A stretch of 64,000 nucleotides of DNA. Source: Verrucomicrobiota bacterium (lineage in GTDB: Bacteria; Verrucomicrobiota; Verrucomicrobiia; Limisphaerales; UBA11358). Made by a program: the position numbers and the translations under genes. A model generated the notes under the pieces. It saw only the letters and a program-made list of their open reading frames with translations. It did no database searches and was not told the DNA's origin. The stretch covers positions 2,707 through 66,706 of the forward strand of contig JBEKMU010000013.1 of assembly GCA_049523555.1 (NCBI GenBank), given 5' to 3'. Shown here piece by piece: positions 3,523 through 63,416 of the stretch (the first letter of the stretch is position 1; the number at the start of each line of letters is the position of its first letter).

Positions 3523-6500
3523 ATGAAACCGAAAATGCTCCTTCTGGTCATGATGGCAAGTGCCGGTACTATTCTCAGGCCACCCTTTGCGACGGCACAG
3601 CAGATTTTACATGGTCATGTGCCGGAGGCTGTGGTGCGCCTGCGGTTGCAGCCGATTGGCCGGCTTGCCGGCACGAATCATCTGTCACTGGCGATCGGAC
3701 TGCCGTTACGGAACCGGGAATCACTCACCAATTTGCTTCAGCAGCTTTATGATCCGGCCAGCACCAATTACCACCACTATCTTACACCGCAACAATTCAC
3801 CGAAGCCTTTGGTCCGACCGAACAGGATTATAAGGCGGTCATCGCTTTTGCAAAAGCGAACAACCTGACAGTGGCGACAACCCATCCCAACCGACTGTTG
3901 CTCGACGTGAGCGGAACGGTGGCGGAAATTGAGCAAGCGCTCAAGGTAACGCTGCGCGTTTACCAGCATCCGACGGAAAAGCGCACTTTTTACGCGCCGG
4001 ACACGGCGCCTTCACTCGCCTTGACCGTTCCGGTCTTGCACATCAGCGGCCTGGATAATTACGCGTTGCCGCATCCCCGGCTCAAGGCCAGCCATATTGC
4101 GAAAAACAACACCGCGTCGCCCAACACCGGTTCGGGACCTGACGGCTGCTATATGGGGAACGATTTCCGGGCCGCTTACGTTCCGGATTCGTCATTGACC
4201 GGTTCGGGACAGGTGGTCGGTTTGTTGCAGTTTGATGGATATACGGCCAGCGACATCATTTACTACGAGAATCTGGCCGGGCTGCCAAATGTTACATTGA
4301 CCAATGTGCTGTTGGACGAATTCGACGGCTACCCGACTGGTTATGGAGATATTGAGGTCTGTCTGGACATTGAAATGGCCATTTCGATGGCACCGGATTT
4401 ATCCCAGGTGATTGTTTATGAAGCGCCGAACGGCAGTCCGTTTGAGGACATCATGAACCGTATGGCCACGGACAACCTGGCCAGGCAGTTGAGTTGTTCA
4501 TGGTATATACCCGACGGTAGGCCCGATGCGACCGCCGACCAGATTTGGCAAGAGATGGCGGCGCAGGGCCAGTCATTTTTCAACGCGTCAGGTGACTACG
4601 GAGCCTATACCGGTTTGATTAGCTTTCCCGGTGACACGCCCTATATCACCCAGGTTGGCGGAACAACTTTGACGACGAGCGGTCCGGGCGGAGTCCGGCT
4701 GTCTGAAACCGTTTGGAACCGGAACAATGGCATCGCCAGCGGCGGCGGAATCAGCACGAGTTATCCAATTCCGGACTGGCAAGCAGGGCTCGACATGACA
4801 GCCTGTCAAGGCTCGGTGACGATGCGCAACACGCCGGATGTGGCGCTGACCGCTGACGATATTTACGTCCGAGCCGATGGTCAGGACTACTCTGTCGGCG
4901 GAACCAGTTGTGCCGCCCCATTGTGGGCGGGATTCATGGCCCTGGTCAACCAGCAGGTCGCCGCCTACGGCAGGCCGCCCGCCGGCTTCATCAACCCGGC
5001 CATCTATGCCCTGGCCAAAGGATCGTTTTATGGCGCCTGCTTTCATGACATCACCACCGGCAATAACACCAACAACAGCAGCCCAAATCTTTACTATGCC
5101 GTTCCCGGCTACGACCTCTGCACGGGTTGGGGCACGCCCAACGGCGCGAACCTCATCAACGCCCTGGCTCCGCCCGACTGGCTGGTTATTACTCCATCCT
5201 ACGGCTTCACTTCCAGCGGCAATCCTGGTGGGCCATTCTCCGTCAATTCACAGAGCTTGAACTTGACCAACGCAGGAACCAACCAGTTTGCCTGGTCTCT
5301 CAGCAATACTTCACCCTGGCTGAATGTCTCGACCAACGGAGGCACACTGACGCCGGGCGGAGCCTCAGCCACGGTGATGGTGAGCCTTAGCCCGGCGGCC
5401 AGCGACCTGCCCCCCGGCGTATACACCGCAACGCTCTGGTTCACCAACCTCGATGATTCAATCGGACAGGGTCGCACCTTTACTTTGATCGTGCTGGGCG
5501 CACCTATGATAGCTGTGCAGCCAAAGAATCAAGTGGCTGTAGCGGGTGGCACTGCAACTTTCACCATCAAAGTAACGGGTGCCACACCCTTGAGTTACAC
5601 CTGGCAGAGGAACGGCAGCTACATCCCTGGCGCGACCAATGCGATTTACACCAACAACAACGCGCAATTGTCCGACTCCGGCAGCCAGTTCTGTTGCATG
5701 GTCACCAACGCCTTTGGCGCCATCACCAGTTCGGTCGCGTCGTTGACAGTCTTCAGTCCTCCCTGGCACTTGTTTAGCGGATTCGATGGCGCCAATCCTG
5801 CCGGCGCTCTGGTGCTGGGCAGTGACGGCAACTTCTATGGCACGACCGAGGGCGGTGGGTTCTACGGCTGTGGAACCATATTCAGAATGACAACGAATGG
5901 GGAGTTGACCACCTTGGTCTCGTTCAACAACGCGAATGGAGTCTTTCCTGCAGCCGGTCTGGTGCAGGGCAGCGACGGCAACTTCTACGGCACCGCGGAA
6001 TACGGCGGAGCCTACAGCTATGGAACCATTTTCAGAATGACTGCCAATGGCGCGCTGACCACCCTGGTTTCGTTCAATGGCACGAATGGTTCAATACCCC
6101 AAGCCGTTCTGGTGCAGGGCAGCGACGGCAATTTTTATGGCACGACGTCTTATGGCGGAGCGGACTTTAACGGATCCGTGCAGAGCGGCAACGGCACCGT
6201 CTTTAGAATAACGCCCAACGGCCTGCTGACCACCCTGGTTCTGTTCGACATGACGAACACTGGCGCCGATCCCTGCGGTGGCCTAGTGCAGGCCGGTGAT
6301 GGGAATTTCTATGGCACAACCCTTTATGGCACAACCCTGAATGGACCAACCTACGGTACCGTATTCAGAATGACAACCAATGGCGTGTTGACAACGTTGG
6401 TTACGTTCAATGCGCCGTATGCGATGGATGGCGGCGCCCCCTATGCCGGCCTGGTGCAGGGCAATGACGGGAATCTCTATGGCACGACCGCGGCAGGCGG

Positions 6501-8574
6501 AGCCTACAACCTTGGAACCGTATTCAGAGTGACCACCAATGGCTTGCTGACCACCCTGGTTTCGTTCAATGGCACGAATGGGATGAAGCCCCAAGCCGCG
6601 CTGGTGCGGGGCAGCGACGGCAATTTCTATGGCGTCACGTCGTTCGGCGGACCCTACGGTGACGGAACTGTGTTCAGCGTGGCAAGCGATGGGACATTGC
6701 ACACGTTCCTCGTGTTCGCGGGCATCAATGGCTTCTGGCCCACAGCCGCGCTGGTGCAAGGCAGTGATGGCAATTTCTATGGCACGACTTTTTATGGCGG
6801 CGACGGCTACGACCCCCTGTTGGACTTTAGTGGCAATGGCATCGTCTTCCGCCTGGTGCCGCCTCCAAGCCCAAGCCCGCCGCTAATTGTCGTGCAACCT
6901 CTGAATCAGACCGCGGTGGTCGGCGACACCGCGTCCTTCTCCATCATCGCCATCGGCAGCGCAGCTTTGAGTTATTCCTGGATGCACCAAGGTGCCTTGG
7001 TTCCCGGTGCAACGAGCGCCACTTGCACGCTGACGAACGTTTCCGCGGCGGACGCGGGCAGTTACTACGCTGTCGTGACCAATGACTACGGCAGTGTCAC
7101 CAGCCGCGTAGCCACCTTAACCATAACCGCGTTGGTGGCGGCTGAACTCGGAGTTTACGGCCAGCAACTGGTGGTATTTTTTCCGACCACTACCAGAACC
7201 AATTATACGCTGCAAATCACCACCAATCCAGCTTCCGGCAATTGGGTGACGGTCACCAACGGCATTCCCTTGAGCGGCTTGGAAATTGACAGCGTCCCCG
7301 GCCCAGCCTTTTTCCGGTTTAGCCGCGGTAGGCCAAGCGTAACATGTCTTGCTGCCGGCTATTCCCACAGCCTGTTTGTGAAACACGACGGCAGTCTGTG
7401 GGCCATGGGCAACAACAGTTGCGGCCAGTTGGGCAACGGTACTTACAACAGCACCAACCTCCCCGAGGAAATTGTGGCCGACAACGTCATGGCAATGGCC
7501 GGCGGTTGGACACATAGTCTATTTGTGGAACGCGACGGCAGTTTGTGGGGTATGGGCTGCAACACTTTTGGCCAGTTGGGCAACGGCGCTTTCAGCACCG
7601 ACACCCCCGAGGAGATTGTGACCACCAACGTCACAGCCATTGCCGCCGGCGGTTTGCATACCCTGTTTATCAAGGGCGATGGCAGCCTGTGGGCCATGGG
7701 TTGGAACCAGTCTGGCCAGTTGGGTGACGGAACTTACATTAACACCAACCGTCCCGAACAAATTGTGACCAGTGATGTTATGGCCATCGCCGGCGGATAT
7801 TGTCACAGTCTTTTCCTGAAGAGTGACGGCAGCCTGTGGGCCATGGGCAACAACAGTTGCGGCCAGTTGGGTGACGGAATTTACATTAACACCAACCACC
7901 CCGAACAGATCGTGGCCAGCAATGTTATGGCCATTGCCTGCGGATATAGCCACAGCCTTTTCTTGAAGAGTGACGGCAGCCTGTGGGCCATGGGCGATAA
8001 TTCTTACGGCGAATTGGGCGACGGCTCTTACAACCGGACGAACCGGCCCGAGCAGATCGTTGCCAGCAATGTCACAGCCATTGCTGCCGGAAATGGTTTC
8101 AGTTTGTTTTCCGAGCGCGACGGCAGCCTGTGGGCCATGGGTTGGAACCAGTCTGGCCAGTTGGGTAACGGAACTTACATCAACACCAACCGCCCCGAAC
8201 AGATCATGGCCAGCAATGTTATGGCCATTGCCTGCGGATATAGCCACAGCCTTTTCCTGAAGAGTGACGGCAGCCTGTGGGCCATGGGCGATAATTCTTA
8301 CGGCGAATTGGGCGACGGCTCTTACGCCACCAACTTCCCCTACGGAATCAACCACCCCGAGGAGGTTGTGGGCATTAGTGTACCCGTGCTGGGTATTGGT
8401 ACCTGGAGCAATCAGCCGGTGGTTTTTTACCCGGTCGCCACCGCCACCAATGATTTGCTGCTGATTACGACCAATCTCACATCCGGCAATTGGGCGCCAT
8501 TCAGCACCGGCATTCCCTTCAGCATCCTGCAAATCCCCAACGTCCCCAGCCCCTTCTTTTTCCGGCTGTATTAA
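3523..8574 (+). CDS. Secreted multidomain protein: pro-kumamolisin/sedolisin (S53) peptidase + BACON/Ig-like domains + 7x Gloeo_Verruco repeats + Ig-like + 7x RCC1 repeats
   Basis: Signal peptide MKPKMLLLVMMASAG...ATAQQ. An S53 pro-domain and catalytic domain with the serine motif VGGTSCAAPLWAG (about nt 4890-4930). Two Ig I-set-like modules (PxIxVQPxNQxAVxGxTAxF...YxxVVTNxxGSVTS). Seven xGSDGNFYGTT...GTIFRMTxNGxLTTLVSFN units. Seven HSLFxKSDGSLWAMGxNxxGQLGDG units. Confidence 0.9.
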   Translation: MKPKMLLLVMMASAGTILRPPFATAQQILHGHVPEAVVRLRLQPIGRLAGTNHLSLAIGLPLRNRESLTNLLQQLYDPASTNYHHYLTPQQFTEAFGPTEQDYKAVIAFAKANNLTVATTHPNRLLLDVSGTVAEIEQALKVTLRVYQHPTEKRTFYAPDTAPSLALTVPVLHISGLDNYALPHPRLKASHIAKNNTASPNTGSGPDGCYMGNDFRAAYVPDSSLTGSGQVVGLLQFDGYTASDIIYYENLAGLPNVTLTNVLLDEFDGYPTGYGDIEVCLDIEMAISMAPDLSQVIVYEAPNGSPFEDIMNRMATDNLARQLSCSWYIPDGRPDATADQIWQEMAAQGQSFFNASGDYGAYTGLISFPGDTPYITQVGGTTLTTSGPGGVRLSETVWNRNNGIASGGGISTSYPIPDWQAGLDMTACQGSVTMRNTPDVALTADDIYVRADGQDYSVGGTSCAAPLWAGFMALVNQQVAAYGRPPAGFINPAIYALAKGSFYGACFHDITTGNNTNNSSPNLYYAVPGYDLCTGWGTPNGANLINALAPPDWLVITPSYGFTSSGNPGGPFSVNSQSLNLTNAGTNQFAWSLSNTSPWLNVSTNGGTLTPGGASATVMVSLSPAASDLPPGVYTATLWFTNLDDSIGQGRTFTLIVLGAPMIAVQPKNQVAVAGGTATFTIKVTGATPLSYTWQRNGSYIPGATNAIYTNNNAQLSDSGSQFCCMVTNAFGAITSSVASLTVFSPPWHLFSGFDGANPAGALVLGSDGNFYGTTEGGGFYGCGTIFRMTTNGELTTLVSFNNANGVFPAAGLVQGSDGNFYGTAEYGGAYSYGTIFRMTANGALTTLVSFNGTNGSIPQAVLVQGSDGNFYGTTSYGGADFNGSVQSGNGTVFRITPNGLLTTLVLFDMTNTGADPCGGLVQAGDGNFYGTTLYGTTLNGPTYGTVFRMTTNGVLTTLVTFNAPYAMDGGAPYAGLVQGNDGNLYGTTAAGGAYNLGTVFRVTTNGLLTTLVSFNGTNGMKPQAALVRGSDGNFYGVTSFGGPYGDGTVFSVASDGTLHTFLVFAGINGFWPTAALVQGSDGNFYGTTFYGGDGYDPLLDFSGNGIVFRLVPPPSPSPPLIVVQPLNQTAVVGDTASFSIIAIGSAALSYSWMHQGALVPGATSATCTLTNVSAADAGSYYAVVTNDYGSVTSRVATLTITALVAAELGVYGQQLVVFFPTTTRTNYTLQITTNPASGNWVTVTNGIPLSGLEIDSVPGPAFFRFSRGRPSVTCLAAGYSHSLFVKHDGSLWAMGNNSCGQLGNGTYNSTNLPEEIVADNVMAMAGGWTHSLFVERDGSLWGMGCNTFGQLGNGAFSTDTPEEIVTTNVTAIAAGGLHTLFIKGDGSLWAMGWNQSGQLGDGTYINTNRPEQIVTSDVMAIAGGYCHSLFLKSDGSLWAMGNNSCGQLGDGIYINTNHPEQIVASNVMAIACGYSHSLFLKSDGSLWAMGDNSYGELGDGSYNRTNRPEQIVASNVTAIAAGNGFSLFSERDGSLWAMGWNQSGQLGNGTYINTNRPEQIMASNVMAIACGYSHSLFLKSDGSLWAMGDNSYGELGDGSYATNFPYGINHPEEVVGISVPVLGIGTWSNQPVVFYPVATATNDLLLITTNLTSGNWAPFSTGIPFSILQIPNVPSPFFFRLY
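5773..6862 (+). repeat. Seven tandem Gloeo_Verruco (GloVer, choice-of-anchor type) repeats inside the giant CDS
   Basis: I counted seven occurrences of G(S/N/G)DGN(F/L)YG, each followed by G(T/I)(I/V)F(R/S). The period is about 50 aa. Confidence 0.8.
7345..8370 (+). repeat. Seven tandem RCC1-type propeller blades inside the giant CDS
   Basis: Seven DGSLW(A/G)MG...GQLG(D/N)G units with a period of about 49 aa. Some pairs are nearly identical at the DNA level. Confidence 0.85.
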
Positions 8575-11024: not shown

Positions 11025-11227
11025 ATTTGCCCTCGTCGTGCAGGCGACACGGTTCTTTGGGGAAAACTTGCACTGGGGATTTTATCAGCCCAGATCGCTG
11101 ACAAATACTATCCATTTTATCGTGTGGAAACAACACCTGTATGTCCTTAAAAGGACAGTCCTCGTTTTGGGATTTGCCAGTGCCGCCAATTTCAGGGATA
11201 TTGTCTCCCGTTTTTTCATGGCCATTT

Positions 11228-12787
11228 ATGAAACCCCAGGTCGAAATCTATGACACGACCCTGCGCGACGGTTCGCAGGGTGAAGGCATCAATTTCTCGG
11301 TCGCGGACAAGCTCCGCATCGCCGAGAAGCTCGACGCGTTCGGGGTGCATTACATCGAAGGCGGCTGGCCCGGCTCGAACCCCAAGGACATGGAATTTTT
11401 TGCGCAGGCCAGCCGGCACAAGTGGAAGAACGCCCAAATCGCCGCGTTCAGCATGACCCGCCGCAAGGGCGTCACCGTCGAGAAGGACGAGTTGATGCGG
11501 CAGATTCTCGATGCGAAAACACCGGTCGTCACCGTCGTCGGCAAAACGTGGCTGTTGCACGTCACCGAGGTGTTGCGCGCCAAGCCGGATGAAAACCTCG
11601 CGATGATCGGCGACACCATCCGCTTTTTGAAGGACCACGGCAAAACGGTCATCTACGACGCCGAGCACAGCTTCGACGGTTTCAAGGACGAACCGGAATA
11701 CGCGCTGGCCACATGGCAGGCCGCGGAGAAAGCGGGCGCGGAGTGCATCGCGTTGTGCGACACGAATGGCGGCTGTCTGCCGGAGGAAATCGCGCGCATC
11801 ACGGCGTTTGCGAAAAGCAAACTCACGGCCCGCCTCGGCATCCACACACACAACGATTGCGGTGTGGGTGTGGCCAATGCCCTCGCCGGCCTCGAAGCCG
11901 GTGCCACGCAGGTGCAGGGCACCATCAACGGCTACGGCGAACGCACGGGCAATTGCAATCTGACCAGCGTCATTCCGCTGATTCATTTCAAGTTGAAAAA
12001 AATCGGCGTGCCAGTGAAGTCATTACCCAAGCTCAAGGAGCTTTCCGAATTCGTGGATGAGATGGCCAACGTTCGGCACGATCCGCGCCAGCCGTGGGTG
12101 GGACAGACGGCTTTTGCGCACAAGGGCGGGATGCACGTGCACGCGATTGACCGCGTGGCGCGCAGCTACGAACACATTGACCCGGCCGCCGTTGGGAATT
12201 TCCGCCGCGTGCTCATCAGCGACATGTCGGGCCGCACGAACATTTTGATGAAGGGCGCGGAGCTCGGGTTCAAGCTCAAGCCGGAAATGCCGGAAGTGAA
12301 AACTATCACGCAGCGCGTCAAGGAACTGGAAAACCAAGGTTACGAGTTCGAGGCCGCCGAAGGTTCGCTCGCGCTGCTGATCAGCAAGACGCTCAAACAT
12401 CGCGACCCGCTGTTTCACGTGGACGCCTATCACGTTTCCATGCGGCGTGATGCCAGGGAGTCCGTCTGTGAAGCGACGGTCAAGGTCGGCGTCGGCACCC
12501 GGCAGGCGCAGACGGTGGCCGAGGGCGACGGCCCCGTGAACGCGCTCGACGGCGCATTGCGCTCGGCGCTGGTGAAGTTTTATCCGCAGCTTAAAAAGGT
12601 GACGCTCACGGATTACAAGGTGCGCATTCTTAACAGCGACACCGGCACCGCCGCCAAGACGCGCGTGCTCATCGAATCCAGCGACGGCCGGCGCGAATGG
12701 GGCACCGTCGGCGTGAGCGAGAACATCATCGAAGCCAGCCTCCAGGCGCTCGTGGACAGCATGGAATATGCGCTGTTAAAAAAATGA
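11228..12787 (+). CDS. cimA: Citramalate synthase / LeuA-related (isoleucine pathway)
   Basis: MKPQVEIYDTTLRDGSQGEGINFSVADKLRIAEKLDAFGVHYIEGGWPGSNPKDMEFF matches the citramalate synthase subfamily pattern. The ATG at 11228 lies inside ORF 11141..12787. Confidence 0.85.
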   Translation: MKPQVEIYDTTLRDGSQGEGINFSVADKLRIAEKLDAFGVHYIEGGWPGSNPKDMEFFAQASRHKWKNAQIAAFSMTRRKGVTVEKDELMRQILDAKTPVVTVVGKTWLLHVTEVLRAKPDENLAMIGDTIRFLKDHGKTVIYDAEHSFDGFKDEPEYALATWQAAEKAGAECIALCDTNGGCLPEEIARITAFAKSKLTARLGIHTHNDCGVGVANALAGLEAGATQVQGTINGYGERTGNCNLTSVIPLIHFKLKKIGVPVKSLPKLKELSEFVDEMANVRHDPRQPWVGQTAFAHKGGMHVHAIDRVARSYEHIDPAAVGNFRRVLISDMSGRTNILMKGAELGFKLKPEMPEVKTITQRVKELENQGYEFEAAEGSLALLISKTLKHRDPLFHVDAYHVSMRRDARESVCEATVKVGVGTRQAQTVAEGDGPVNALDGALRSALVKFYPQLKKVTLTDYKVRILNSDTGTAAKTRVLIESSDGRREWGTVGVSENIIEASLQALVDSMEYALLKK

Positions 12788-12792
12788 TTTTT

Positions 12793-12861
12793 CAACGCAA
12801 AGGCGCAAAGAAGCAAAGTCGCCAGGAGAAGAAAAATCTTTGCGTCTCTGCGTCTTGGCGT
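12793..12861. repeat. Imperfect inverted-repeat (hairpin) element in the cimA-valS gap
   Basis: CAACGCAAAGGCGCAAAGAAGCAAAG ... CTTTGCGTCTCTGCGTCTTGGCGT. The arms are reverse-complementary with a few mismatches. Confidence 0.7.
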
Positions 12862-12870
12862 CAAATTCCC

Positions 12871-15800
12871 ATGAGTGAAATTCCCAAGGCCTACGAACCG
12901 CAAGCAGTCGAAGACAAGTGGTACCAGTTCTGGCTCGACCAGAAGTGCTTCGTCGCCGATGCGCAGTCGAAGAAGCCTGCTTATTCCATTGTCATCCCGC
13001 CGCCGAATGTCACCGGCATGCTCACGATGGGCCACGTCCTCAACAACACCATCCAGGACATCCTCGCCCGCAAAGCGCGCATGGACGGCAAGGAGGTCCT
13101 CTGGCTGCCCGGCACCGATCACGCCGGCATTGCCACGCAGACGGTGGTGGAACGCACGTTAAAAAAGGCCGGTGAAATCAAACATCGTGACGATTTGGGC
13201 CGCGAAAAATTCCTCGAACGCGTCTGGCAATGGAAGGAAAAGCACGGCGGTATCATCATCCAGCAATTGAAGAAGCTCGGCGCGTCGTGCGACTGGACGC
13301 GTGAACGGTTCACCATGGACCCGGAATATTCGCGCTGTGTCCAGAAGGTATTTGTGGAGCTTTACAAAAAGGGCCTTATCTATCGCGGCAAGCGCATGGT
13401 GAACTGGGACCCTGCCGCCCGCACCGCGCTCTCCGACGAGGAAGTCGAAATGATCGAGGAAAAGGGGCACCTCTGGCACATCAAATATCCGCTGCTCGAC
13501 GACCAGGGCCAACCCAAGGCTGATGAATTCGTGGTCGTCGCCACGACCCGCCCGGAAACGATGCTCGGCGACGAAGCGGTGGCAGTGAATCCGTCCGACC
13601 CGCGTTACACGAAGCTGGTCGGGCGGAAGGTGCTGTTGCCGCTCCAGAACAAGCCCATCCCGGTCATTGCTGACGCACTGGTGGACCCGAAGTTCGGTAC
13701 CGGTTGCGTGAAGGTGACGCCCGCACACGATCCGGCCGACTACGAGATAGCGCTACGGCACAACCTGCCGATCACCGTCGTCATCGGCCTCGACGGCCAC
13801 ATGACGCCGGCCGCCGGCAAGGAGTTTGAGGGCTTGAACCGTTCGAAAGTGCGCCAGGCCGCAGTCGAGAAACTGACCGAGCAGGGCTTGTTGCTGAAGA
13901 CCGAGGATTACGTCCACAATGTCGGTTACAGCCAGCGCAGCCATGTGCCCATCGAACCGTATCTGAGCGAGCAATGGTTTTTGAAATATCCAAGCGTGGA
14001 AAAATCGCGGGCGTGCGTGGAGCAAGCCGACGTCGGAGGGGCGAGTTCCACGAGCCCCACTTCAAGTCAGGGCGTCGCAGAGCTCCGCCCTCCGAAAGAT
14101 GGGAAAATGCAGTTCCATCCGCAGCGCTGGGCGAAGGTCTATGACCACTGGATGGGCAACATCCAGGACTGGTGCATCAGCCGCCAGCTTTGGTGGGGAC
14201 ACCGGATTCCGGTGTGGACTCTGGCGTGGAATGACGAATGTGCCGGCGGTGCAATTGAAGAGGAAGAATTTTTGATGGGTATCAATGCATGGGTGAAGGA
14301 AGTCGGTTTAGTTGGCAAACTTGAAATTCACATCGCCCGTGATTTGCCCTATACAGCTCGCATTTTGACATTGGACTCGGAAGCGGATGCTCGTCTGGCA
14401 GAACTGGCTGAAGTCGCAAGCAAACATGATGAACAAGCTTCGTCTGAGTATGAAGCGCGCTTTACGACAGAAGCGAAGATTCTTTACACGATTGATACAC
14501 TCACCCAAGACCCCGATGTGCTCGATACGTGGTTCAGCTCCTGGCTCTGGCCGTTTGCGACGATGGGCTGGACGGGTGACAAATCCCAGGACTCCAACAA
14601 CCCAACACTCCGGGCCTTTTATCCGACCACCGACCTGGTCACCGGGCCGGACATCATTTTCTTCTGGGTCGCGCGCATGATTATGGCGGGCTACGAATTC
14701 ATGGGGGATTTGCCGTTCCGGAACGTCTATTTCACCGGCATCATCCGCGACAAGCAGGGCCGCAAGATGTCCAAGAGCCTCGGCAATTCGCCTGACCCGC
14801 TCGACCTCATCGCCAAGTTCGGCGCCGATGCGCTCCGGTTCGGCACCATGCGCAGCGCGCCGCTTGGTCAGGACATTTTGTTCGACGAACAAAACGTCGA
14901 GTTGGGCCGCAATTTCTGCAACAAGCTCTGGAACGCCTGCCGCTTCCGCCAGATGGTCGGCAGTGCCGACTTCCCAATTCAGGGGGAGATTAATCCAAAA
15001 CTATTAACGTCAGACGACAAATGGATTTTGCTCAAGCTCGATCAGGCGATTCGTGAAATGAACACCGCATTCGCCGAATACAAATTCAGCGACGCGACGG
15101 CGACGCTCTACCGCTTTTTCTGGAGCGAGTATTGCGATTGGTACGTCGAGGCGAGCAAAGCTGTGCTGTCGCACAGCGTTGAACCGTTAAAACGCGAAAC
15201 CGTTGAATCGGCCACCGGTTCAACGATTCAACCTTTCAACGATTCAACGGCTCGCAAAGCGAATACTCTGGCCGTGATTGATTTTGTTCTCTCGCATACG
15301 CTGCGGCTGTTTCATCCGTTTCTGCCGTTCATCACGGAGGAACTCTGGCATGGGATGGGTTATGCCGAGGACATGCCACAAGATCAGGGCGGCAAAACCA
15401 TCATGTTCGCGCCCTGGCCGAAGCCGCTCGGCGACGATTTCAAATCACACTACGACCTGACCGAACAGGACGAAAAACACATCGAAGCCCGCAACGAATT
15501 TGTCACGCAAGGCCGCAATCTGCGCCGCACGGCGAACATCGCCGCGAACAAGAAGGTCAAATTCATTCTCAAACCGGCGCGCGAATTGCCGGCTCACGAC
15601 CTCGAAGTGCTAAGGCTGTTGCTGAATGCCGAGGCGGTCGAGGTGAACACGAATTTTCAGCCGGCAAAAAACACGATGACGGTGCGCACCGCGTTGGGCG
15701 ATTTGTTTCTGCCGCTGGAAGGTTTGATTGACATCGAGGCGGAAAAAGCGCGGCTGAAAAAGGAGTTGGAAAAAATCGAGGCCGAGACCGCCAAAGTCGA

Positions 15801-15933
15801 ACAGAAGCTGGCCAACCCGAACTTCACGCAAAAGGTTCCAGCGCAAGTCTTGGAGGAACACAAGCAGCGTCTCGCCGAGTGGCATGGCAAACGCGACCAC
15901 GTGAAATCCGCACTGGCCGCCCTGCAAGGTTGA
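12871..15933 (+). CDS. valS: Valine--tRNA ligase
   Basis: MSEIPKAYEPQAVEDKWYQFW start, the class I HIGH-type motif PPPNVTGMLTMGHV and KMSKS (RKMSKSLGN). A C-terminal coiled coil is present. The ATG at 12871 lies inside ORF 12697..15933. Confidence 0.95.
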   Translation: MSEIPKAYEPQAVEDKWYQFWLDQKCFVADAQSKKPAYSIVIPPPNVTGMLTMGHVLNNTIQDILARKARMDGKEVLWLPGTDHAGIATQTVVERTLKKAGEIKHRDDLGREKFLERVWQWKEKHGGIIIQQLKKLGASCDWTRERFTMDPEYSRCVQKVFVELYKKGLIYRGKRMVNWDPAARTALSDEEVEMIEEKGHLWHIKYPLLDDQGQPKADEFVVVATTRPETMLGDEAVAVNPSDPRYTKLVGRKVLLPLQNKPIPVIADALVDPKFGTGCVKVTPAHDPADYEIALRHNLPITVVIGLDGHMTPAAGKEFEGLNRSKVRQAAVEKLTEQGLLLKTEDYVHNVGYSQRSHVPIEPYLSEQWFLKYPSVEKSRACVEQADVGGASSTSPTSSQGVAELRPPKDGKMQFHPQRWAKVYDHWMGNIQDWCISRQLWWGHRIPVWTLAWNDECAGGAIEEEEFLMGINAWVKEVGLVGKLEIHIARDLPYTARILTLDSEADARLAELAEVASKHDEQASSEYEARFTTEAKILYTIDTLTQDPDVLDTWFSSWLWPFATMGWTGDKSQDSNNPTLRAFYPTTDLVTGPDIIFFWVARMIMAGYEFMGDLPFRNVYFTGIIRDKQGRKMSKSLGNSPDPLDLIAKFGADALRFGTMRSAPLGQDILFDEQNVELGRNFCNKLWNACRFRQMVGSADFPIQGEINPKLLTSDDKWILLKLDQAIREMNTAFAEYKFSDATATLYRFFWSEYCDWYVEASKAVLSHSVEPLKRETVESATGSTIQPFNDSTARKANTLAVIDFVLSHTLRLFHPFLPFITEELWHGMGYAEDMPQDQGGKTIMFAPWPKPLGDDFKSHYDLTEQDEKHIEARNEFVTQGRNLRRTANIAANKKVKFILKPARELPAHDLEVLRLLLNAEAVEVNTNFQPAKNTMTVRTALGDLFLPLEGLIDIEAEKARLKKELEKIEAETAKVEQKLANPNFTQKVPAQVLEEHKQRLAEWHGKRDHVKSALAALQG

Positions 15934-18766: not shown

Positions 18767-19579
18767 CTACCGCAATTTGTTCGCGATGAAAAATGCCTTC
18801 AATTTTTCCAACGCCCGGGCGCGATGGCTCAATTTGTTTTTCACGTCTTCGCCCAGTTCGGCAAACGTCTGCTCGAAACCAACCGGCACAAACAGCGGGT
18901 CGTAACCAAAACCGTTTTGGCCGCGTGATTCAAAATTCATGCGGCCTTTGCAAACCCCATCGAACAATTCCGTTTGCATCTCGAATTCATCCGCGTAGCA
19001 AACCGGCGACGCATTTTCGATTTTTTCAGGCAGCACCGGCGTCAACGCCAACACGCAATGAAACCGTGCGGTGCGCTTCTCCAACGGAACGTTCTTGAGC
19101 AGGCGCAACAATTTGGCGTTGTTGTCGGCGTCGGACGTGTTGCCGGACTTCGCCGAATCCAGCGCGGCAAAGCGCGCCGAATGCACGCCCGGTGCGCCGT
19201 TCAACGCGTCCACCTCCAAACCGGAATCGTCGGCGAGCACGAATAACTTTGAACCCTGAACTGTGAACCCTGAACCCTGAACATTGGAAAGCCAGCGCGC
19301 CAGTTCAACGGCTTTTTTTGTCGCGTTGCCGGCGAACGTGCCGGCGTCCTCGACGATTTTCGGCGCGCCGGGAAAATCGTTGAGCGTGAGAAACTGAAAC
19401 CGGCCGCCGAGGATGGCGCGGATTTCGCCTGCTTTGTGGGCGTTGCGCGTGGCGATGAGCAGCGTAATCACGTCCGCACAATAACAGGCGGGAAATTGGA
19501 TTGGCAGCCGCAAACTTTGGCCGGCCTGAACATTTTTTGGCAATTCTTTATCCGAAATGGTCAAAACGGGCCTGTCCAC
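18767..19579 (-). CDS. rdgB: Non-canonical purine NTP pyrophosphatase (RdgB/HAM1 family)
   Basis: LLIATRNAHKAGEIRAILG, LADDSGLEVDALNGAPGVHSARF and GFGYDPLF. The start is ambiguous: GTG at 19579 (longest ORF) or GTG at 19470 just before VITLLIATRN. Confidence 0.85.
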   Translation of the reverse strand: MDRPVLTISDKELPKNVQAGQSLRLPIQFPACYCADVITLLIATRNAHKAGEIRAILGGRFQFLTLNDFPGAPKIVEDAGTFAGNATKKAVELARWLSNVQGSGFTVQGSKLFVLADDSGLEVDALNGAPGVHSARFAALDSAKSGNTSDADNNAKLLRLLKNVPLEKRTARFHCVLALTPVLPEKIENASPVCYADEFEMQTELFDGVCKGRMNFESRGQNGFGYDPLFVPVGFEQTFAELGEDVKNKLSHRARALEKLKAFFIANKLR

Positions 19580-25352: not shown

Positions 25353-25450
25353 AATGGAGTAATGGAGTGTTGGGGCGATGGAGTATTGGGTTCACGCGCA
25401 AGCATGTCAGGCCTTTCCATCACTCCATCACTTCAATACTCCACCATCCC
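25353..25450. repeat. AATGGAGT-type inverted-repeat hairpin element
   Basis: Left arm AATGGAGTAATGGAGTGTTGGGGCGATGGAGTATTGGG. Right arm CATCACTCCATCACTTCAATACTCCACCATCCC. It belongs to the same family as 37952..38030. Confidence 0.8.
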
Positions 25451-34295: not shown

Positions 34296-37136
34296 TTACG
34301 CCACGGCGATGTTCACCAGTTTTTTCGGCACGACGATGACTTTCCTGATCGTCTTGCCGGCCAGGAACGGCTTCACTTTTTCAGAGGCGCGAGCAGCGGC
34401 TTCGAGCGCGGCATTGTCAGCGTTGGCCGGGACTTTGATGACGTCGCGCAACTTGCCGTTCACCTGCACGGGAATTTCCAGTGTGTCCTCGACGAGCAAC
34501 GTTGCATCAAACTTTGGCCAGCAGGCGTAAGCCAGCGCGATTCGATGTTGGATGTTCGATGTTGGATGTTCGATGTTCAGCTTTTCCCACAACTCCTCCG
34601 CCAAGTGCGGCGCGAAAGGCTGGAGTAGAATCAAAAAATCGCGCAGCACCACAACCGGCTTTGTTTCCCAGGTGATGGCGTCGTTTACAAAGACCATCAG
34701 CGCCGAAATAGCCGTGTTGAAACGAAAGCCGTCCAAATCCGCCGTCACCTTTTTGATGCAGGCGTGCAACGTTTTAAGCTGCTCGCGCGCCGGTTCGACA
34801 TCTTTAATCGAGCCGCTGAGTTGGATTTTTTTGAGCAGTTCTGGGCCTTTCTGCGGCTGAATTGTTTCCGCCTGCTCGAATTCCGTTTCAGATTTTTCGT
34901 CCACGAACAGCCGCCAGACGCGGCCGAGGAAACGATAAACGCCTTCGACGCCCTTGGTGCTCCACGGCTTGACCATTTCAAGCGGGCCCATGAACATTTC
35001 GTAAAGACGCAACGCATCCGTGCCGAAATCTCTCAAAACATCATCGGGGTTCACCACGTTGCCGCGCGATTTGGACATTTTCTGGCCGTCCTCGCCGAGA
35101 ATCAGTCCTTGATTGACGAGCTTGAAGAACGGTTCGGGCGTCGAGACGTAGCCGAGGTCGAACAAGACCTTGTGCCAGAACCGTGCGTAAAGCAGATGTA
35201 ATACGGCGTGCTCGGTACCGCCGACATATAAATCCACGCCTGGAGTCGTGGACTTGGAGTCTGGGGTCTGGGATTTCGGTTCTTGGGAACCCATCCAATA
35301 TTGCTCCGCCTCCTTGCCGACGAACGATTGCGCATTCTTCGCGTCGAGGTAACGCAAATAATACCAGCAACTGCCGGCCCATTGCGGCATGGTGTTCGTC
35401 TCGCGCTGTGAGCCGTCGGGCAGATTCACCCAATCCTTCGCGCGCGCGAGCGGCGGCTGGCCATCAGGAGTGGGTTTGTAATCGTCAAGCGGCGGCGGCA
35501 AGACCGGCAGCGCGCTTTCGGGCAGGGCTTCGTGATACAAATTTCCAGCGGCATCCTTTTTCCAAATAATCGGGAAAGGCTCGCCCCAGTAACGTTGCCG
35601 GCTGAACAGCCAGTCGCGGAGTTTGTAATTGATGGTTTTCTTTCCAAGGCCTCTCGATTCGAGCCAAGCGGTGATTTTCTTTTTGGCTTCGGGCGTGGGC
35701 AGGCCGGTGATGGAAATCTCCGGCCCAGTGGAATTCACCGAAGTGCCGTCGTCCACGAATCCGCGCCAATCTGTCTTCTGGTCGGGTGGCTGAACGACTT
35801 GAATAATGGGCAGGTTGAATTTGGTGGCGAACTCGAAGTCGCGCGTGTCATGTGCCGGCACGGCCATGATGGCACCGGTCCCATAGCTGGCGAGAACGTA
35901 ATCAGCAATCCAAATGGGAATTTTTTCTCCGTTGACCGGGTTGATGACGTAAGCACCGGTGAAGACGCCAGTTTTCTCTTTGGCCAACTCGGTGCGTTCG
36001 AGGTCGGACTTCTTGGCAACGTCGGTTTTATACTTGGCAATCGCGGCGCGCAGTTCCGCAGTGGTAACTTGGTCAACGAGTTTGTGTTCCGGCGCGAGCA
36101 CCATGTAAGTTGCGCCGAAGAGCGTATCGGGTCGCGTAGTAAAAACTTCGATGAAGTTTGCAACGTCTGAAAACTGAACATTTGAAACTTGAAATCTCAC
36201 TGTGGCACCTTCGCTGCGACCAATCCAGTTCCGTTGCATTTCCTTGAGCGAATTGCTCCAGTCAATCGTGTCGAGGTCGGTGAGAAGTTTCTCGGCATAG
36301 GCGGTGATGCGGAGCATCCATTGGCGCATCGGTTTGCGGGTGACGGGAAATCCGCCGACTTCACTCTTGCCGTCCACAACTTCTTCGTTGGCCAGCACGG
36401 TGCCAAGTTGCTCGCACCACCAGACGGGTTGTTCGCTGACGTAGGCGAGGCGTTTTGAGTCGCGGTAGGCGCGGCGGCGGGCTTCGAGGTCTTGTTCGTC
36501 AGTAGGGCCGACCTGCCGGTCGGCCTGGACGCGCGGCAGCGCGTCCCTACCGGAAAGTTCCGCCGGATACTTCAGCGTCTCAATCGGCTCGGCCTTGTTC
36601 GTTTCCGGATTGAACCACGAGTTGTAAAGCTTCAGGAAAATCCACTGGGTCCACTTGAAATAATCGGGGTCGGTGGTGGCGAGTTCGCGCGACCAATCGT
36701 AACTGAAGCCAAGCGATTGAATCTGGCGCTTGAACGTGGCGATGTTGGCCTCGGTGGTCTGGCGGGGGTGCAGGCCGGTCTTGACGGCATATTGCTCGGC
36801 GGGCAGGCCGAAGGCGTCCCAGCCCATCGGATGCAGGACGTTGAAGCCGAGCGCGCGCCGGTAACGGGCGAGGATGTCCGTGGCGGTGTAACCTTCCGGA
36901 TGCCCAACGTGCAAACCCGCGCCGCTAGGATACGGAAACATGTCGAGGATGTAAAATTTGGGTGGCAACTGCGTGGCGGCCACCTTGCCGGAAAGACGAT
37001 GGCGTTTGGCGAAAGGGTGCCCGTCCGGGAGGACTTCGCCCGGATTAAACGCGCGAAAGGTCTGCTGTTCGTTCCAAAATTGCTGCCACTTAGGTTCAAT
37101 CAAATGAAACGGATATTGCCTGCGGCTGCTCGACAT
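34296..37136 (-). CDS. leuS: Leucine--tRNA ligase
   Basis: [23 protein letters not shown] (HIGH region), KMSKSRGN, and the CP1 editing domain. It is 946 aa, longer than usual because of several inserts. Confidence 0.97.
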
Positions 37137-37194: not shown

Positions 37195-37953
37195 CTAATG
37201 TTTGACCGGTAAACTTCGCCAGACGAGTCGCAACCCTTCGAGCGTCAAGTTGGGTTCGACGGCTGAAATTTCCGGCAAACGTGCGGCAATTAATCCGGCG
37301 TAACCGCCCGTCGCCACCACCGGCAAATGTTTCACCTGCAATTCGCGCTTCAACTCGGCGATCAATTCACGAACCAGCCCGCGATAACCATGCACCGCGC
37401 CGACGAGCATCGCTTGTTCAGTGCTCCTGCCAATGCTCGTTTTGACTTCGCGGATTTTGATGCGCGGCAGCAACGCCGTTTTCTCGTGCAGATAATCCGT
37501 CATCGCCGCCAGCCCCGGCGCAATGATGCCCCCCGCGTAATTGCCCGCGCGATTGACGACATCAAACGTCACCGCCGTTCCGAAATCCACCACCACCACC
37601 GGCGCGCCAAAGCGCTTGCGCGCAGCCACGGCGTTTGCCAGGCGATCCTCCCCGATTGTGTCCGGCTTCGGATAATCAATGCCCACGCCGCAAAGTGTTT
37701 TTCGCGTGAGTTCGAATGCGTTCAAATTCCAAAGTCGGCGGACGGTTTTGCGGACGTGCGGTGTCGCGCGCGGCACCACGCTGCATAGCGCAGCGCCCTT
37801 CAAACTCGCGCGGCCAACAAATTTTTTCGCCAATTTCTCCGCCGCGCCCTTGAACCAGAACGATGTGGGCATGTTTGTGTGCTTCATCACACACCGGTCG
37901 TTGGCCAGACCGAGATGCGTGTTCGTGTTGCCGATGTCGAAAAGCAAAAGCAT
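37195..37953 (-). CDS. coaX: Type III pantothenate kinase
   Basis: [16 protein letters not shown] start, then [12 protein letters not shown] and ATGGYA. The ATG at 37953 lies inside ORF 37195..38043, whose 5' part is repeat-encoded. Confidence 0.9.
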
Positions 37954-38030
37954 GGAGTAATGGAGTAATGGAGTAATGGAGTGTTGGAAATCTTTTTCGG
38001 TGCCGCACCACTCCACCACTCCATCACTCC
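37952..38030. repeat. AATGGAGT-type inverted-repeat hairpin element (second copy)
   Basis: ATGGAGTAATGGAGTAATGGAGTAATGGAGTGTTGG ... CCACTCCACCACTCCATCACTCCG. It fills the birA-coaX gap. Confidence 0.8.
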
Positions 38031-39088: not shown

Positions 39089-40024
39089 TCATGTTTCAAA
39101 ATCCAAACCGATGTCCACCGCGCGCGCGGAATGTGTGAGCGCGCCGACGGAAATGAAATCCACGCCGGTCCCGGCAATCGCGCGGACATTCGCCAGATTC
39201 ACGCCGCCGCTGGCCTCGGTCTTCATGCGGCCTTTGACTTTCTGCACCGCCAGCCGCAGTTGAATCGGGTTCATGTTGTCGAGCAAAATGATGTCCGCCC
39301 ACGCATCGGCGGCCTGCTCGACCTGCTCCAGCTTGTCGGCTTCGACCTCAATTTTCAGTTTCGGAAACTTTTCGCGCGCGCGCTGGACGGCGGCGGCGAT
39401 GGCATTCGGTTTTTCACCGCGCAGCGCCGCGAGGTGATTGTCCTTGATGAGCACCATGTCGAACAGGCCGGTGCGATGGTTGTGCCCGCCACCGCACGCG
39501 ACGGCGTATTTCTCGAAACGCCGCCAGCCGGGCGTGGTTTTGCGCGTGTCCAGAATCTGCGCGTGAGTTCCTTTGATGGCTTCGACAAATTGCGCAGTAA
39601 GCGTGGCGATGCCGGAAAGCCGCTGGACGAAATTCAACGCGACACGCTCGGCGCTCAAAAGGGCGCGGGCCGGGCCGGAAATTTTCAGCAAGGTTTCATT
39701 CTCACCGACATGTTGGCCGTCATTCGCCAGCCGCTCAATTTTGATTTCCCCTTCGGAGGGCGGAGTTCCACGACGCCCTGATTCATTTTGAGATTTTGGG
39801 GGCTCGCAGCGCTCGCCCCTCCGATTGATGAATTGTAAGACTTCGCAGAACGCAGCTTCGGCGAAGGCGAGTCCGGCCACGACGAGCGGTTCGCGCGCAC
39901 GCATGAGCGCTTTGGCCGTCGCGGTTGCGGGCACGATGGATAAAGTCGTGGCGTCACCGCTGCCGATGTCCTCGGCAAGGGCCAGCTTGACGGCCTGACG
40001 GATTTCTGCGGCGGACAATTCCAC
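39089..40024 (-). CDS. nadC: Nicotinate-nucleotide diphosphorylase (carboxylating)
   Basis: AEIRQAVKLALAEDIGSGDATT, LDTRKTTPGWR and IEVEADKLEQVEQAADAWADIILLDNM. The likely GTG start at 40024 gives M-ELSAAEI. The longest ORF reaches 40144 but would overlap the divergent gene. Confidence 0.85.
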   Translation of the reverse strand: MELSAAEIRQAVKLALAEDIGSGDATTLSIVPATATAKALMRAREPLVVAGLAFAEAAFCEVLQFINRRGERCEPPKSQNESGRRGTPPSEGEIKIERLANDGQHVGENETLLKISGPARALLSAERVALNFVQRLSGIATLTAQFVEAIKGTHAQILDTRKTTPGWRRFEKYAVACGGGHNHRTGLFDMVLIKDNHLAALRGEKPNAIAAAVQRAREKFPKLKIEVEADKLEQVEQAADAWADIILLDNMNPIQLRLAVQKVKGRMKTEASGGVNLANVRAIAGTGVDFISVGALTHSARAVDIGLDFET

Positions 40025-57189: not shown

Positions 57190-57200
57190 TACTGTTTAAC

Positions 57201-57328
57201 CACGGATGAACACGGATGGACACGGATAAAATTCGTAGCAGCCGAGGTAACGAGGCTCTGACTTGCATCACGCATCACGCAACACGCATCACGGCGCAGA
57301 AAAGTTAGAGCCTCCTCACGTCGGCTGC
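57201..57328. repeat. Composite repeat block in the nuoL-nuoK spacer
   Basis: Three 10-mers CACGGATGAA/CACGGATGGA/CACGGATAAA. The inverted pair GTAGCAGCCGAGGTAACGAGGCTCT ... AGAGCCTCCTCACGTCGGCTGC. A CACGCATCA-type tandem lies between the arms. Confidence 0.8.
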
Positions 57329-57359
57329 CGCGGGTTAAATGGTTTGTTTCGCTCATGCG

Positions 57360-57665
57360 CTACAGTTTCATCGTGGTCAGATCCTCGACATGCGCGGACT
57401 GGCGTTTGCGGTAAAGCGCAACGATGAGCGCCAGGCCGACCGCGACTTCCGCCGCCGCGACGGTGATGATGAAAAAGACCAGGACCTGGCCGTCCAATTT
57501 GTTGTTGAACCGTGAAAAGGAAACCAGCGCGAGATTCGCCGCATTGAGCATCAGTTCCAGCGACATGTAAATCACCAGCAGATTGCGCCGCATGACGATG
57601 CCCAAAAGTCCGAGCGCGAACAGCAAAAAGCTCACGACTAAGTATTGTTCCAAACCTACGTTCAT
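57360..57665 (-). CDS. nuoK: NADH-quinone oxidoreductase subunit K
   Basis: 101 aa, 3 TM helices, with LELMLNAANL and AAAEVAVGLA. Confidence 0.95.
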   Translation of the reverse strand: MNVGLEQYLVVSFLLFALGLLGIVMRRNLLVIYMSLELMLNAANLALVSFSRFNNKLDGQVLVFFIITVAAAEVAVGLALIVALYRKRQSAHVEDLTTMKL

Positions 57666-57669
57666 ATCT

Positions 57670-57768
57670 TGATTGAATCGTTGAATCGTTGAACGGTTGA
57701 ACGGTTGAATCGGCGAAATTCGATGTCGCCGCGCCGGTTCAACGATTCGACGCTTTTAACGATTAAAC
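57670..57768. repeat. GTTGAATCG/GTTGAACGG-type inverted-repeat element in the nuoK-nuoJ spacer
   Basis: TTGAATCGTTGAATCGTTGAACGGTTGAACGGTTGAATCGGCG ... CGCCGGTTCAACGATTCGACGCTTTTAACGATTAAACG. Confidence 0.8.
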
Positions 57769-57774
57769 GAACCT

Positions 57775-58284
57775 TCATTTCAAATCCTTTTTGCTCAACA
57801 AAATCACGCCCACCATCGCCACGAGCAGCAGCACCGAAACGATTTCAAACGGCAGCACATATTGGGTGAACAGCAGTTGGCCGAGCGCGTCGGTTCCGCC
57901 TTCAAGCTGCGGCGCGGGCAAATCCGCGCCCGGATTTGCCGATTTCAACGCCTTCAAAGAAATCGCCACGATGGCACCGACGGAAATCAATCCGCCCACA
58001 AAGCCGAACATTTTGATTTTGCGGCGCTGTTCCTCCTTCAAATCGAGCAGCATGATGACGAACAGGAACAGGACGATGACCGCGCCGGCGTAAACGATTA
58101 TTTGGACGGCGGCGAGGAAGAACGCGTGCAGCAATACAAACAAGCCGGCCATCGAAACGATGGTCAGCACCAGAAACATCGCGCTCGTGACCGGGCTGCG
58201 GCTGAACGGATTGGCCACGACGAGGACGCCGCACAACAGCGTCAATGCCGCAAACACGTAAAATAAAATGTCAGGCAGTCCCAT
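57775..58284 (-). CDS. nuoJ: NADH-quinone oxidoreductase subunit J
   Basis: 169 aa and 5 TM helices. AVQIIVYAGAVIVLFLFVIML is typical of NuoJ. Confidence 0.92.
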   Translation of the reverse strand: MGLPDILFYVFAALTLLCGVLVVANPFSRSPVTSAMFLVLTIVSMAGLFVLLHAFFLAAVQIIVYAGAVIVLFLFVIMLLDLKEEQRRKIKMFGFVGGLISVGAIVAISLKALKSANPGADLPAPQLEGGTDALGQLLFTQYVLPFEIVSVLLLVAMVGVILLSKKDLK

Positions 58285-63103: not shown

Positions 63104-63110
63104 GGCTAAT

Positions 63111-63251
63111 CGCGTGATGCGTAATGCGTGATGCGTGAAAAAGTCGGGCAGGCGTCTCGCCTGCTCGCGCCGAGCGAAGCAAGGCAGGGAGATAGAAATG
63201 CCAAATGCTCGCGCTGATGCGCTCGCCGGGCAGGCGAGACGCCTGCCCTAC
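63111..63251. repeat. GTGATGCGT tandem plus 109-bp REPIN-like inverted doublet in the nuoF-nuoE spacer
   Basis: CGCGTGATGCGTAATGCGTGATGCGTGA. Then GTCGGGCAGGCGTCTCGCCTGC (63143..63164) and GGGCAGGCGAGACGCCTGCCCTAC (63228..63251). The arms are near-perfect reverse complements. Confidence 0.85.
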
Positions 63252-63304: not shown

Positions 63305-63378
63305 TGCCCGATGGTGTAACGGTAGCACAGCAGACTCTGGATCTGTTTGTCATGGTTCAAATCCATGTCGGGCAGCCA
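63305..63378 (+). tRNA. tRNA-Gln (anticodon CTG), CCA-encoded
   Basis: I folded the cloverleaf by hand. Acceptor TGCCCGA/TCGGGCA has 7 perfect pairs. D arm is GTG-TAACGGTAG-CAC. Anticodon stem is GCAGA/TCTGT with loop CTCTGGA. Variable loop is 4 nt. T arm is CATGG-TTCAAAT-CCATG. Discriminator G is followed by CCA. U1-A72 and G73 fit Gln identity. Confidence 0.9.
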
Positions 63379-63387
63379 ACTTGCCAA

Positions 63388-63416
63388 GGCTGAAGGCTGA
63401 AGGCTGAAGGCTGAAT
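63388..63416. repeat. Heptamer tandem repeat (GGCTGAA x4)
   Basis: GGCTGAAGGCTGAAGGCTGAAGGCTGAA lies immediately downstream of the tRNA and upstream of the nuoE stop. Confidence 0.85.

Follow-up and report, generated by a model that had tools for sequence, protein, structure and literature searches.

Several described systems come close to the element reported here. Among them are the Rickettsia palindromic elements (RPEs), reportedly described by Ogata et al. in 2000; the short tandemly repeated repetitive (STRR) sequences of cyanobacteria, which are heptamers; and quasi-palindrome template-switch mutagenesis (Ripley; Lovett and colleagues), which makes one arm of an imperfect inverted repeat change together with the other. 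A survey of intragenic REPs with GTAG/CGTC tags (Di Nocera et al. 2013, PMC3733652) reports in-frame copies in housekeeping genes, where DNA-repair genes and aminoacyl-tRNA synthetases can contain 20-30 REP-encoded residues; GTAG repeats inside genes reached their highest number in Opitutus terrae, a verrucomicrobium, and the survey also refers to the Rickettsia RPEs. Both REPs and REPINs (Bertels & Rainey 2011, PMC3116915) are imperfect palindromes of short length, many of them paired in inverted orientation so that a long hairpin results. Here, we analyze a 64,000-nucleotide stretch of DNA from a soil Verrucomicrobiota bacterium (assembly GCA_049523555.1, contig JBEKMU010000013.1; the whole stretch is called the window), in which the essential gene valS, encoding valine-tRNA ligase (ValRS), hosts an in-frame hairpin built from 8-nt units. 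We consider it probable that this octamer hairpin was inserted in frame into a loop of ValRS, in an orientation constrained by stop codons, and that its peptide is neutral while the hairpin is maintained as nucleic acid. The features on which the argument turns are as follows.

12871-15933, plus strand: valS (valine-tRNA ligase, 1020 aa), the host gene, from its open reading frame (ORF)
15177-15250, plus strand: in-frame hairpin of the GTTGAA-octamer family, from sequence, fold, and comparison with 1gax and with empty sites
15178-15209, plus strand: 5' arm of the hairpin, four octamers GTTGAACC, GTTAAAAC, GCGAAACC, GTTGAATC, from sequence
15219-15248, plus strand: 3' arm of the hairpin, four regular TTCAAC units with a period of 8, from sequence and the peptide signature in other hosts
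57666-57774, plus strand: intergenic copy of the octamer family in the nuoJ-nuoK spacer, from sequence, inverted repeat, and fold

The original prediction had placed a 73-nt repeat-derived sequence at 15178-15250, and we found it there exactly as written. The element is an imperfect hairpin of GTTGAAYS and SRTTCAAC units whose two arms (15177-15211 and 15215-15249, each 35 nt) are 77% complementary and separated by a gap of 3 nt. On the sense strand, a degenerate GTTGAA arm comes first, followed by the loop and a regular TTCAAC arm; the 73 nt begin at valS codon 770 and are translated as VEPLKRETVESATGSTIQPFNDST. In the third unit of the 5' arm, GCGAAA replaces GTTGAA, and the in-frame TGA of the regular unit is thereby gone. 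The TTCAAC cores of the 3' arm start at 15219, 15227, 15235, and 15243; this arm encodes STIQPFNDST and has no stop in any frame. The element starts with CGTTGAAC, having CGTTGAA at its beginning, and finishes with GTTCAACG, with neither GTAG nor CGTC at either end. The predicted fold of the sense RNA has an energy of -27.5 kcal/mol (z = -4.2), and that of the antisense strand has one of -41.7 kcal/mol (z = -6.95), the latter being more stable because mismatches turn into G-U pairs. Comparison with Rfam 15 at gathering and permissive thresholds gave generic hairpin matches only, all far under gathering scores.

The host gene product is a bona fide valine-tRNA ligase: it aligns with Thermus thermophilus ValRS (1gax) at an E value of 8.5e-193, carries the Pfam domains tRNA-synt_1, Anticodon_1 (residues 716-898), and Val_tRNA-synt_C, and is 100% identical to a protein from an NCBI Verrucomicrobiota metagenome-assembled genome (P0001). 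In the 1gax alignment, query residues 767-793 fall between chain residues 657 and 659, where the T. thermophilus enzyme has a one-residue turn between aligned blocks. The site lies within Anticodon_1, in the anticodon-binding region as originally stated, with the conserved LRLFHPFLPFITEELW block approximately 15 residues downstream. An AlphaFold model built on a shallow alignment has a confident helix at residues 739-767, a coil with a pLDDT of <50 at 768-789, and another confident helix at 790-817, according to which the extra residues would form a loop joining two helices of the ValRS anticodon-binding domain.

For comparison of the site, we fetched 80 valS loci from GTDB species representatives. 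In most Verrucomicrobiota, the site is exactly 30 nt long and encodes VLQGSDxARK or near variants; longer sites are almost confined to Limisphaerales/Pedosphaera-like relatives of the window. The valS hairpin adds 66 nt (22 codons) to this empty site, directly after the ancestral Gly-Ser codons (GGC-AGC), and the ORF stays intact. Among the 120 closest ValRS homologs, the site is hypervariable, with zero to ~54 additional residues. The gap at 1gax residues 657/659 and the 30-nt site in most of the phylum bear out the expectation, raised with the original prediction, that the peptide would not be generally conserved in orthologs.

The same insert was found in eight loci: the window, L059, and L081 to L086, the last six obtained by a search for contigs encoding ValRS homologs. 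Each has a site of 96 nt (+66 nt) in an identical register, and a relative as close as the carriers (L087) has an empty 30-nt site. A metagenome scan independently added two valS carriers, L170 (96 nt) and L195 (120 nt). In a regular third unit, the reading frame would run into a stop (...CGT TGA...); in all eight carriers this unit is non-TGA (GCGAAA, GTGAAA, GTGGGA, or GTGGAA). The common register and the common stop-removing change suggest a single insertion event followed by vertical descent. The insert is therefore an old, orthologous +66-nt insertion common to at least eight lineages and not private to this genome. Comparison of filled and empty valS sites gave no recognizable target-site duplication of the kind that a MITE would leave; the flanks have diverged, and the whole element is an inverted repeat. 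An assembly artefact was considered and rejected, as the element is at the valS site in eight fetched loci and in the metagenome contigs L170 and L195.

The original prediction also held that the inverted repeat is built from the words of the nuoK-nuoJ spacer, and this was borne out. With up to one mismatch, GTTGAAYSGTTGAA has 9 matches in the window, against 0.18 expected (0/100 shuffles get to 9), all within 15178-15248 or 57672-57751; a three-unit pattern leads to the same two loci. In the spacer copy, five regular GTTGAAYS units (57672-57712) are followed first by a loop and then by a degenerate TTCAAC/TTCGAC/TTTAAC arm (57732-57770). Its regular arm stops 8 nt from the nuoK start codon. 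The copy is flanked by two genes of the nuo operon.

57360-57665, minus strand: nuoK
57775-58284, minus strand: nuoJ

Beyond the window, octamer arrays are found at unrelated loci in other GTDB genomes (L011, L029, and L003), and a scan of metagenome contigs with an exact pattern returned at least 120 stretches with such arrays, so the similarity to other copies is significant and the originally proposed kinship stands. Among the matches listed, the usual architecture is a regular array of GTTGAAYS (3 to 15 units), a variable loop, and a degenerate inverse array (TTCAAC, TTTAAC, or TGTAAC) downstream. As the partner array is almost never upstream of the regular array, the element has a polarity. 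Many intergenic copies finish 7-30 nt from an opposite-strand start codon, as at nuoK. Crude ORF calls established no general orientation rule relative to flanking genes (the left neighbor was encoded on the opposite strand 34 times and on the copy's own strand 29 times); by the same crude calls, hairpin-type copies between codirectional genes are split 10 to 3 in orientation. The GTTGAA-regular strand is the more stable one in 26/32 copies, a bias that we have downgraded as a sign of selection since base composition and ascertainment predict much of it. The valS and nuo spacer copies are members of one dispersed family, with the valS element not being a recent copy of the spacer. In the 20-kb loci of the other valS carriers, we found no further copies of the octamer family.

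About 1 in 7 of the copies listed lie within a long ORF. The hosts of in-frame copies include Oxidored_FMN, Methyltransf_28, a TPR protein, PSD1/DUF1553, XseA, UbiD, MutS, and ValRS, which have a peptide signature in common (...VESLNRSTVKS..., a loop, and ...STIQRFNDST...). In the listed matches, the spanning ORF is always on the TTCAAC strand (26/26 open frames in a simple ORF scan and 16/16 greedy gene calls). The explanation is that three units of GTTGAA at a period of 8 are enough to bring TGA into each of the three frames, and TTCAACSR arrays are free of stops in every frame. The residual stop in the degenerate arm has been removed in various ways, with TCA (Ser) in several hosts and GAA (Glu) in valS, and the insertions are therefore independent. 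A query with the signature peptide against 5.8 billion proteins yielded 37 short hypothetical ORFs only, which are translations of intergenic copies, and did not enumerate the host proteins.

The valS segment could also have arisen locally, by replication slippage of a short unit and subsequent fold-back or template-switch copying, in which case the likeness between valS and the nuoJ-nuoK spacer would be convergence. The many hairpins with other 6-10-nt units in the window and related loci (ACGCAAAG, ATGGAGTA, GTTGCAA, CTTTCAAC, and others) are compatible with this, as are the range in unit number among the listed metagenome copies and the finding that hairpin bases at the valS site take in the flanking ancestral Ser codon. 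We nevertheless regard local genesis as improbable: unrelated loci, unrelated proteins, and different genomes share the octamer unit, the polarity, and the translated signature, which convergence would hardly produce, and the fixed length and register of the valS copy in eight lineages indicate that it is not an actively slipping array.

We then ask what has been conserved in the insert. Pairwise identities among the eight valS orthologs with the insert were as follows.

Flanking valS codons: identity at positions 1/2/3 of 0.90 / 0.94 / 0.67
Insert codons: identity at positions 1/2/3 of 0.80 / 0.77 / 0.78

Codon periodicity is entirely absent from the insert. Its predicted paired columns have an identity of 0.84 and its predicted unpaired columns one of 0.54, compared with 0.60 at four-fold degenerate sites in the valS flanks; the unpaired insert bases drift at a neutral level. 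The equality of the codon positions and the neutrality of the unpaired bases suggest that the constraint is on the nucleic acid and not on the peptide. RNAalifold predicts 33 pairs in the eight orthologs, with standard pairs in 90.9% of pair cells and five pairs in which both partners have changed. Covariation scores 0.160, compared to 0.093 for column shuffles (0/500 reach 0.160), and controls in which the pairing was slid fell to 20-45% paired. An example of a paired double change is GTTGAATC/GATTCAAC in the window versus GTTGAAGC/GCTTCAAC in L083. In 7/8 orthologs, the antisense strand has the more stable fold.

This pattern makes it very improbable that the loop is an adaptive, lineage-specific ValRS feature of 22-27 residues (binding, for example, a tRNA or a partner) in which the DNA repeats are incidental. 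The location within the anticodon-binding domain and a length unchanged in at least eight lineages would fit an adaptive loop, but the flat codon-position profile bears no signature of protein-level selection, the site is hypervariable, with no insert in close relatives or in most Verrucomicrobiota, the same peptide is found in unrelated proteins and also as noncoding DNA, and the loop is modeled as low-confidence coil.

More weight should be given to the idea that the hairpin is a functional nucleic acid element selected inside valS, whether as an mRNA structure for ribosome pausing or decay, as an antisense or template structure, or as a protein-binding DNA site. This idea is compatible with an origin by insertion, and the stem conservation, the five covarying pairs, the better antisense folds, and the fixed polarity of the family (a regular GTTGAA arm at the 5' side and a wobble-tolerant degenerate arm at the 3' side) all speak for it. 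Yet equally close relatives have unrelated hairpins or none at the site, which makes a valS-specific function unnecessary; the strand asymmetry stems in part from base composition, ascertainment, and the removal of stops from the sense 5' arm; template switching in quasi-palindromes can generally preserve arm complementarity without selection; and no Rfam family matches. On balance, we find a selected function within valS unlikely, if clearly less so than an adaptive peptide.

The insertion that we favor would have the following course. The element would be a small nonautonomous hairpin-forming repeat; a few 8-nt units in tandem make up each arm, and the canonical orientation is 5'-(GTTGAAYS)n, loop, (SRTTYAAC)n-3'. 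Its copies are dispersed in Limisphaerales/Pedosphaera-like Verrucomicrobiota genomes, mostly in short intergenic spacers, with transposition as the likely mode of spread. An ancestor shared by several lineages would have acquired one copy in valS, right after the Gly-Ser codons in the turn that links two helices of the anticodon-binding domain. The copy may have survived there because the added length is a multiple of three, because its stop-free TTCAAC arm came to lie on the sense strand, the one orientation that is viable, and because a mutation in unit 3 abolished the only in-frame TGA of the opposite arm. The 22 added residues would be a tolerated surface loop, probably disordered, and nothing points to a function of the peptide. 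The hairpin may be kept by selection on DNA or RNA structure or by self-correcting template switching between the quasi-palindrome arms.

A number of observations weigh against this reading. Only two octamer copies were seen in the 64-kb window, and many window loci have 6-10-mer hairpins of other units, which leaves room for a local, nonmobile genesis. We identified neither a transposase (no search for RAYT genes was carried out in the window or the loci) nor a target-site duplication or a clean footprint of excision, so mobility is deduced from distribution only. In a neighbor-joining tree of 120 ValRS sequences, the branching is near star-like; carrier monophyly cannot be shown from it, nor can gains and losses of insert types be mapped. 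The AlphaFold model is poor overall (mean pLDDT of 60) and was used for the local helix-coil-helix call only. The structure used for the constraint analysis was predicted from the same alignment, and the eight sequences are related, so that both conservation and covariation are inflated; the sample is also small.

Other lineages have other inserts at the same valS position. A GTAG-tagged long hairpin (GTAGCAGCCGAGGTAACGAGGCTC ... GAGCCTCCTCACGTCGGCTGCTAC) is found there in L002, L004, L016, L029, L034, L046, L055, L071, L073, and L079, in some cases with tandem 7-8-mers nested in the loop. L075 has a perfect 26-bp GC-rich hairpin, L044 a different hairpin again, L001 a CGCTCCAA x4 array, and L050 a GTTAAAT-type variant. 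The GTAG hairpin and the L075 arm are dispersed families themselves. Homologs at an equal protein distance (0.09-0.10) from the window show five site states, the empty one included, and the empty site often folds as a small GCTGC-AAG-GCAGC hairpin. The site thus looks like an insertion hot spot for hairpins of several kinds. The shared position may mean either that this loop is among the few insertion-tolerant places of ValRS or that there is a genuine target preference.

A bolder version of this idea, which we put forward as doubtful, is that the clade harbors undescribed "coding-compatible" hairpin elements with expandable octamer arms and a fixed polarity, which, along with unrelated REP-like hairpins, repeatedly target the valS position 3' of GGC-AGC and permissive loops of essential proteins. 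If true, this would imply that an insertion machinery exists that is directed by hairpins or single-stranded DNA and has a site preference, and that the hairpin is actively maintained on the antisense strand of its host gene. The elements would then form a functional, conserved layer of nucleic acid within coding sequence and would not be mere junk.

Two further repeats in the window bear on these comparisons.

14033-14095, plus strand: the "first" hairpin insert in valS, GC-rich (TCGGAGGGGCGAG...CTCCGCCCTCCGA), from inverted repeat, fold, and insertion relative to 1gax
57235-57331, plus strand: long hairpin with a GTAG tag (GTAGCAGCCGAGGTAACGAGGCTC ... GAGCCTCCTCACGTCGGCTGC), located between nuoK and nuoL, from sequence and fold

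The octamer element had been called the second repeat-derived insert in valS, and the gene does hold another, unrelated hairpin at 14033-14095. This insert encodes part of ...GGASSTSPTSSQGVAELRPP..., folds at -40.6 kcal/mol (z = -3.5), and is an insertion relative to 1gax (query residues 374-407), with the in-frame repeat at residues of about 388-408. A further copy of the GC-rich repeat is at 39753-39825, at an ORF 3' end or just downstream, and the valS gene of L087 holds an identical insert (11172-11234). In the nuoK-nuoL spacer (57190-57359), a CACGGATGAA 10-mer array (57201-57227) precedes the GTAG hairpin, which has an array of GCATCAC heptamers in its loop (57265-57293); repeat elements therefore fill both spacers beside nuoK.

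Other parts of ValRS also vary among relatives. Some close homologs (P0010, P0036, P0040, P0059, P0088, and P0106, 1100-1188 aa) and the L195 ORF have a match to PF18798 (LPD3), a whole additional domain inserted at a separate hypervariable site at approximately window residues 451-543. Another hypervariable site is at window residues ~693-703, before EVQGEIDP; in L035, this region of valS (3931-4011) has a hairpin of GTTGAAA / CTTTCAAC heptamers.

Verrucomicrobiota loci commonly contain hairpins built of tandem 6-10-mers, and their units are of many kinds; the literature searched did not contain this general class. At 12795-12862, a hairpin of tandem ACGCAAAG / TCTTTGCG octamers fills the spacer between a leuA-like gene and valS and stops 8 nt short of the valS ATG. 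In L050 (9920-9992; ~61% protein identity), a hairpin of the same units is just upstream of valS, and L046 and L043 have other tandem-repeat units upstream of valS. Octamer hairpins of ATGGAGTA / CACTCCAY units are at 25353-25443 and 37952-38030 in the window, at 16012-16096 in L004, and at 1301-1330 and 17912-17931 in L041. Period-7 arrays (TGAACCC/TGAACTG and TTCGATG/TTGGATG) are at 19245-19282 and 34541-34578, and L059 has a TTCGATG-like array just downstream of valS (13084-13110). A tRNA gene (Rfam, 62.7 bits) lies between two period-7 arrays, GCGTGAT upstream and AAGGCTG x4.3 downstream (63107-63138, 63305-63375, and 63386-63415). The coding tandem repeats of 144-150 nt (also 441 nt) at 5796-6143 and 7365-8289 are apparently protein repeat modules and are unrelated to the valS element.

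These results show that palindromic repeats colonize essential proteins well beyond Rickettsia and Proteobacteria. A single valS with two in-frame repeat families, and a single valS loop with at least five insert kinds across relatives, amount to a natural experiment on where a protein can accept an insertion. They also bear on how stop codons limit the orientation of an element and on whether coding sequence can preserve a nucleic acid structure. In practical terms, such inserts inflate protein-length variation and break local alignments, with BLAST coverage down to 44% for close homologs, and yield spurious small ORFs in metagenome annotations.

How does the octamer element compare with the known systems? 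A full-text literature search for the octamer sequences found no paper, and searches of the STRR and SDR literature gave tangential matches only. Expandable octamer arms, polarity, and a hot spot for multiple hairpin families are not described in the literature that we searched.

STRR sequences resemble the octamer family in being tandem arrays of 7-8-nt units of variable number, scattered mostly in noncoding DNA. They differ in unit, period, and phylum, and neither an inverted partner array nor an in-frame location within proteins is known to be part of their definition. Template switching could explain paired double changes such as the one seen between the window and L083, but it is a mutational process and not an element family.

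With REPs and REPINs, the octamer family agrees in being a short, imperfect, multicopy palindrome that is mainly intergenic in operons and has G-T stem pairs, although our survey of gene orientation was crude; furthermore, a GTAG-tagged hairpin sits at the same valS site in relatives. The octamer element differs in lacking a GTAG/CGTC tag and in having tandem octamers instead of a single stem-loop. A GTAG start is present, unlike in the octamer element, in the 57235-57331 hairpin and in the valS-site inserts of L004, L034, L055, and others.

RPEs and the octamer element are alike as dispersed palindromic repeats, intergenic as well as intragenic, that reside in frame in housekeeping genes and encode a short peptide at a tolerated position, presumably also in valS. 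The valS element is inserted in frame relative to orthologs and belongs to a family with coding and noncoding loci, as expected of an RPE-like phenomenon. RPEs belong to Alphaproteobacteria and the octamer element to Verrucomicrobiota; the valS element is shorter, and its arms are tandem 8-nt arrays of variable copy number. No likeness to any RPE is apparent, though no comparison with RPE consensus sequences was made, and the phylum and the octamer architecture make membership in the RPE families proper unlikely. In-frame palindromic repeats in housekeeping genes are already known, and the octamer element is an undescribed example of them.

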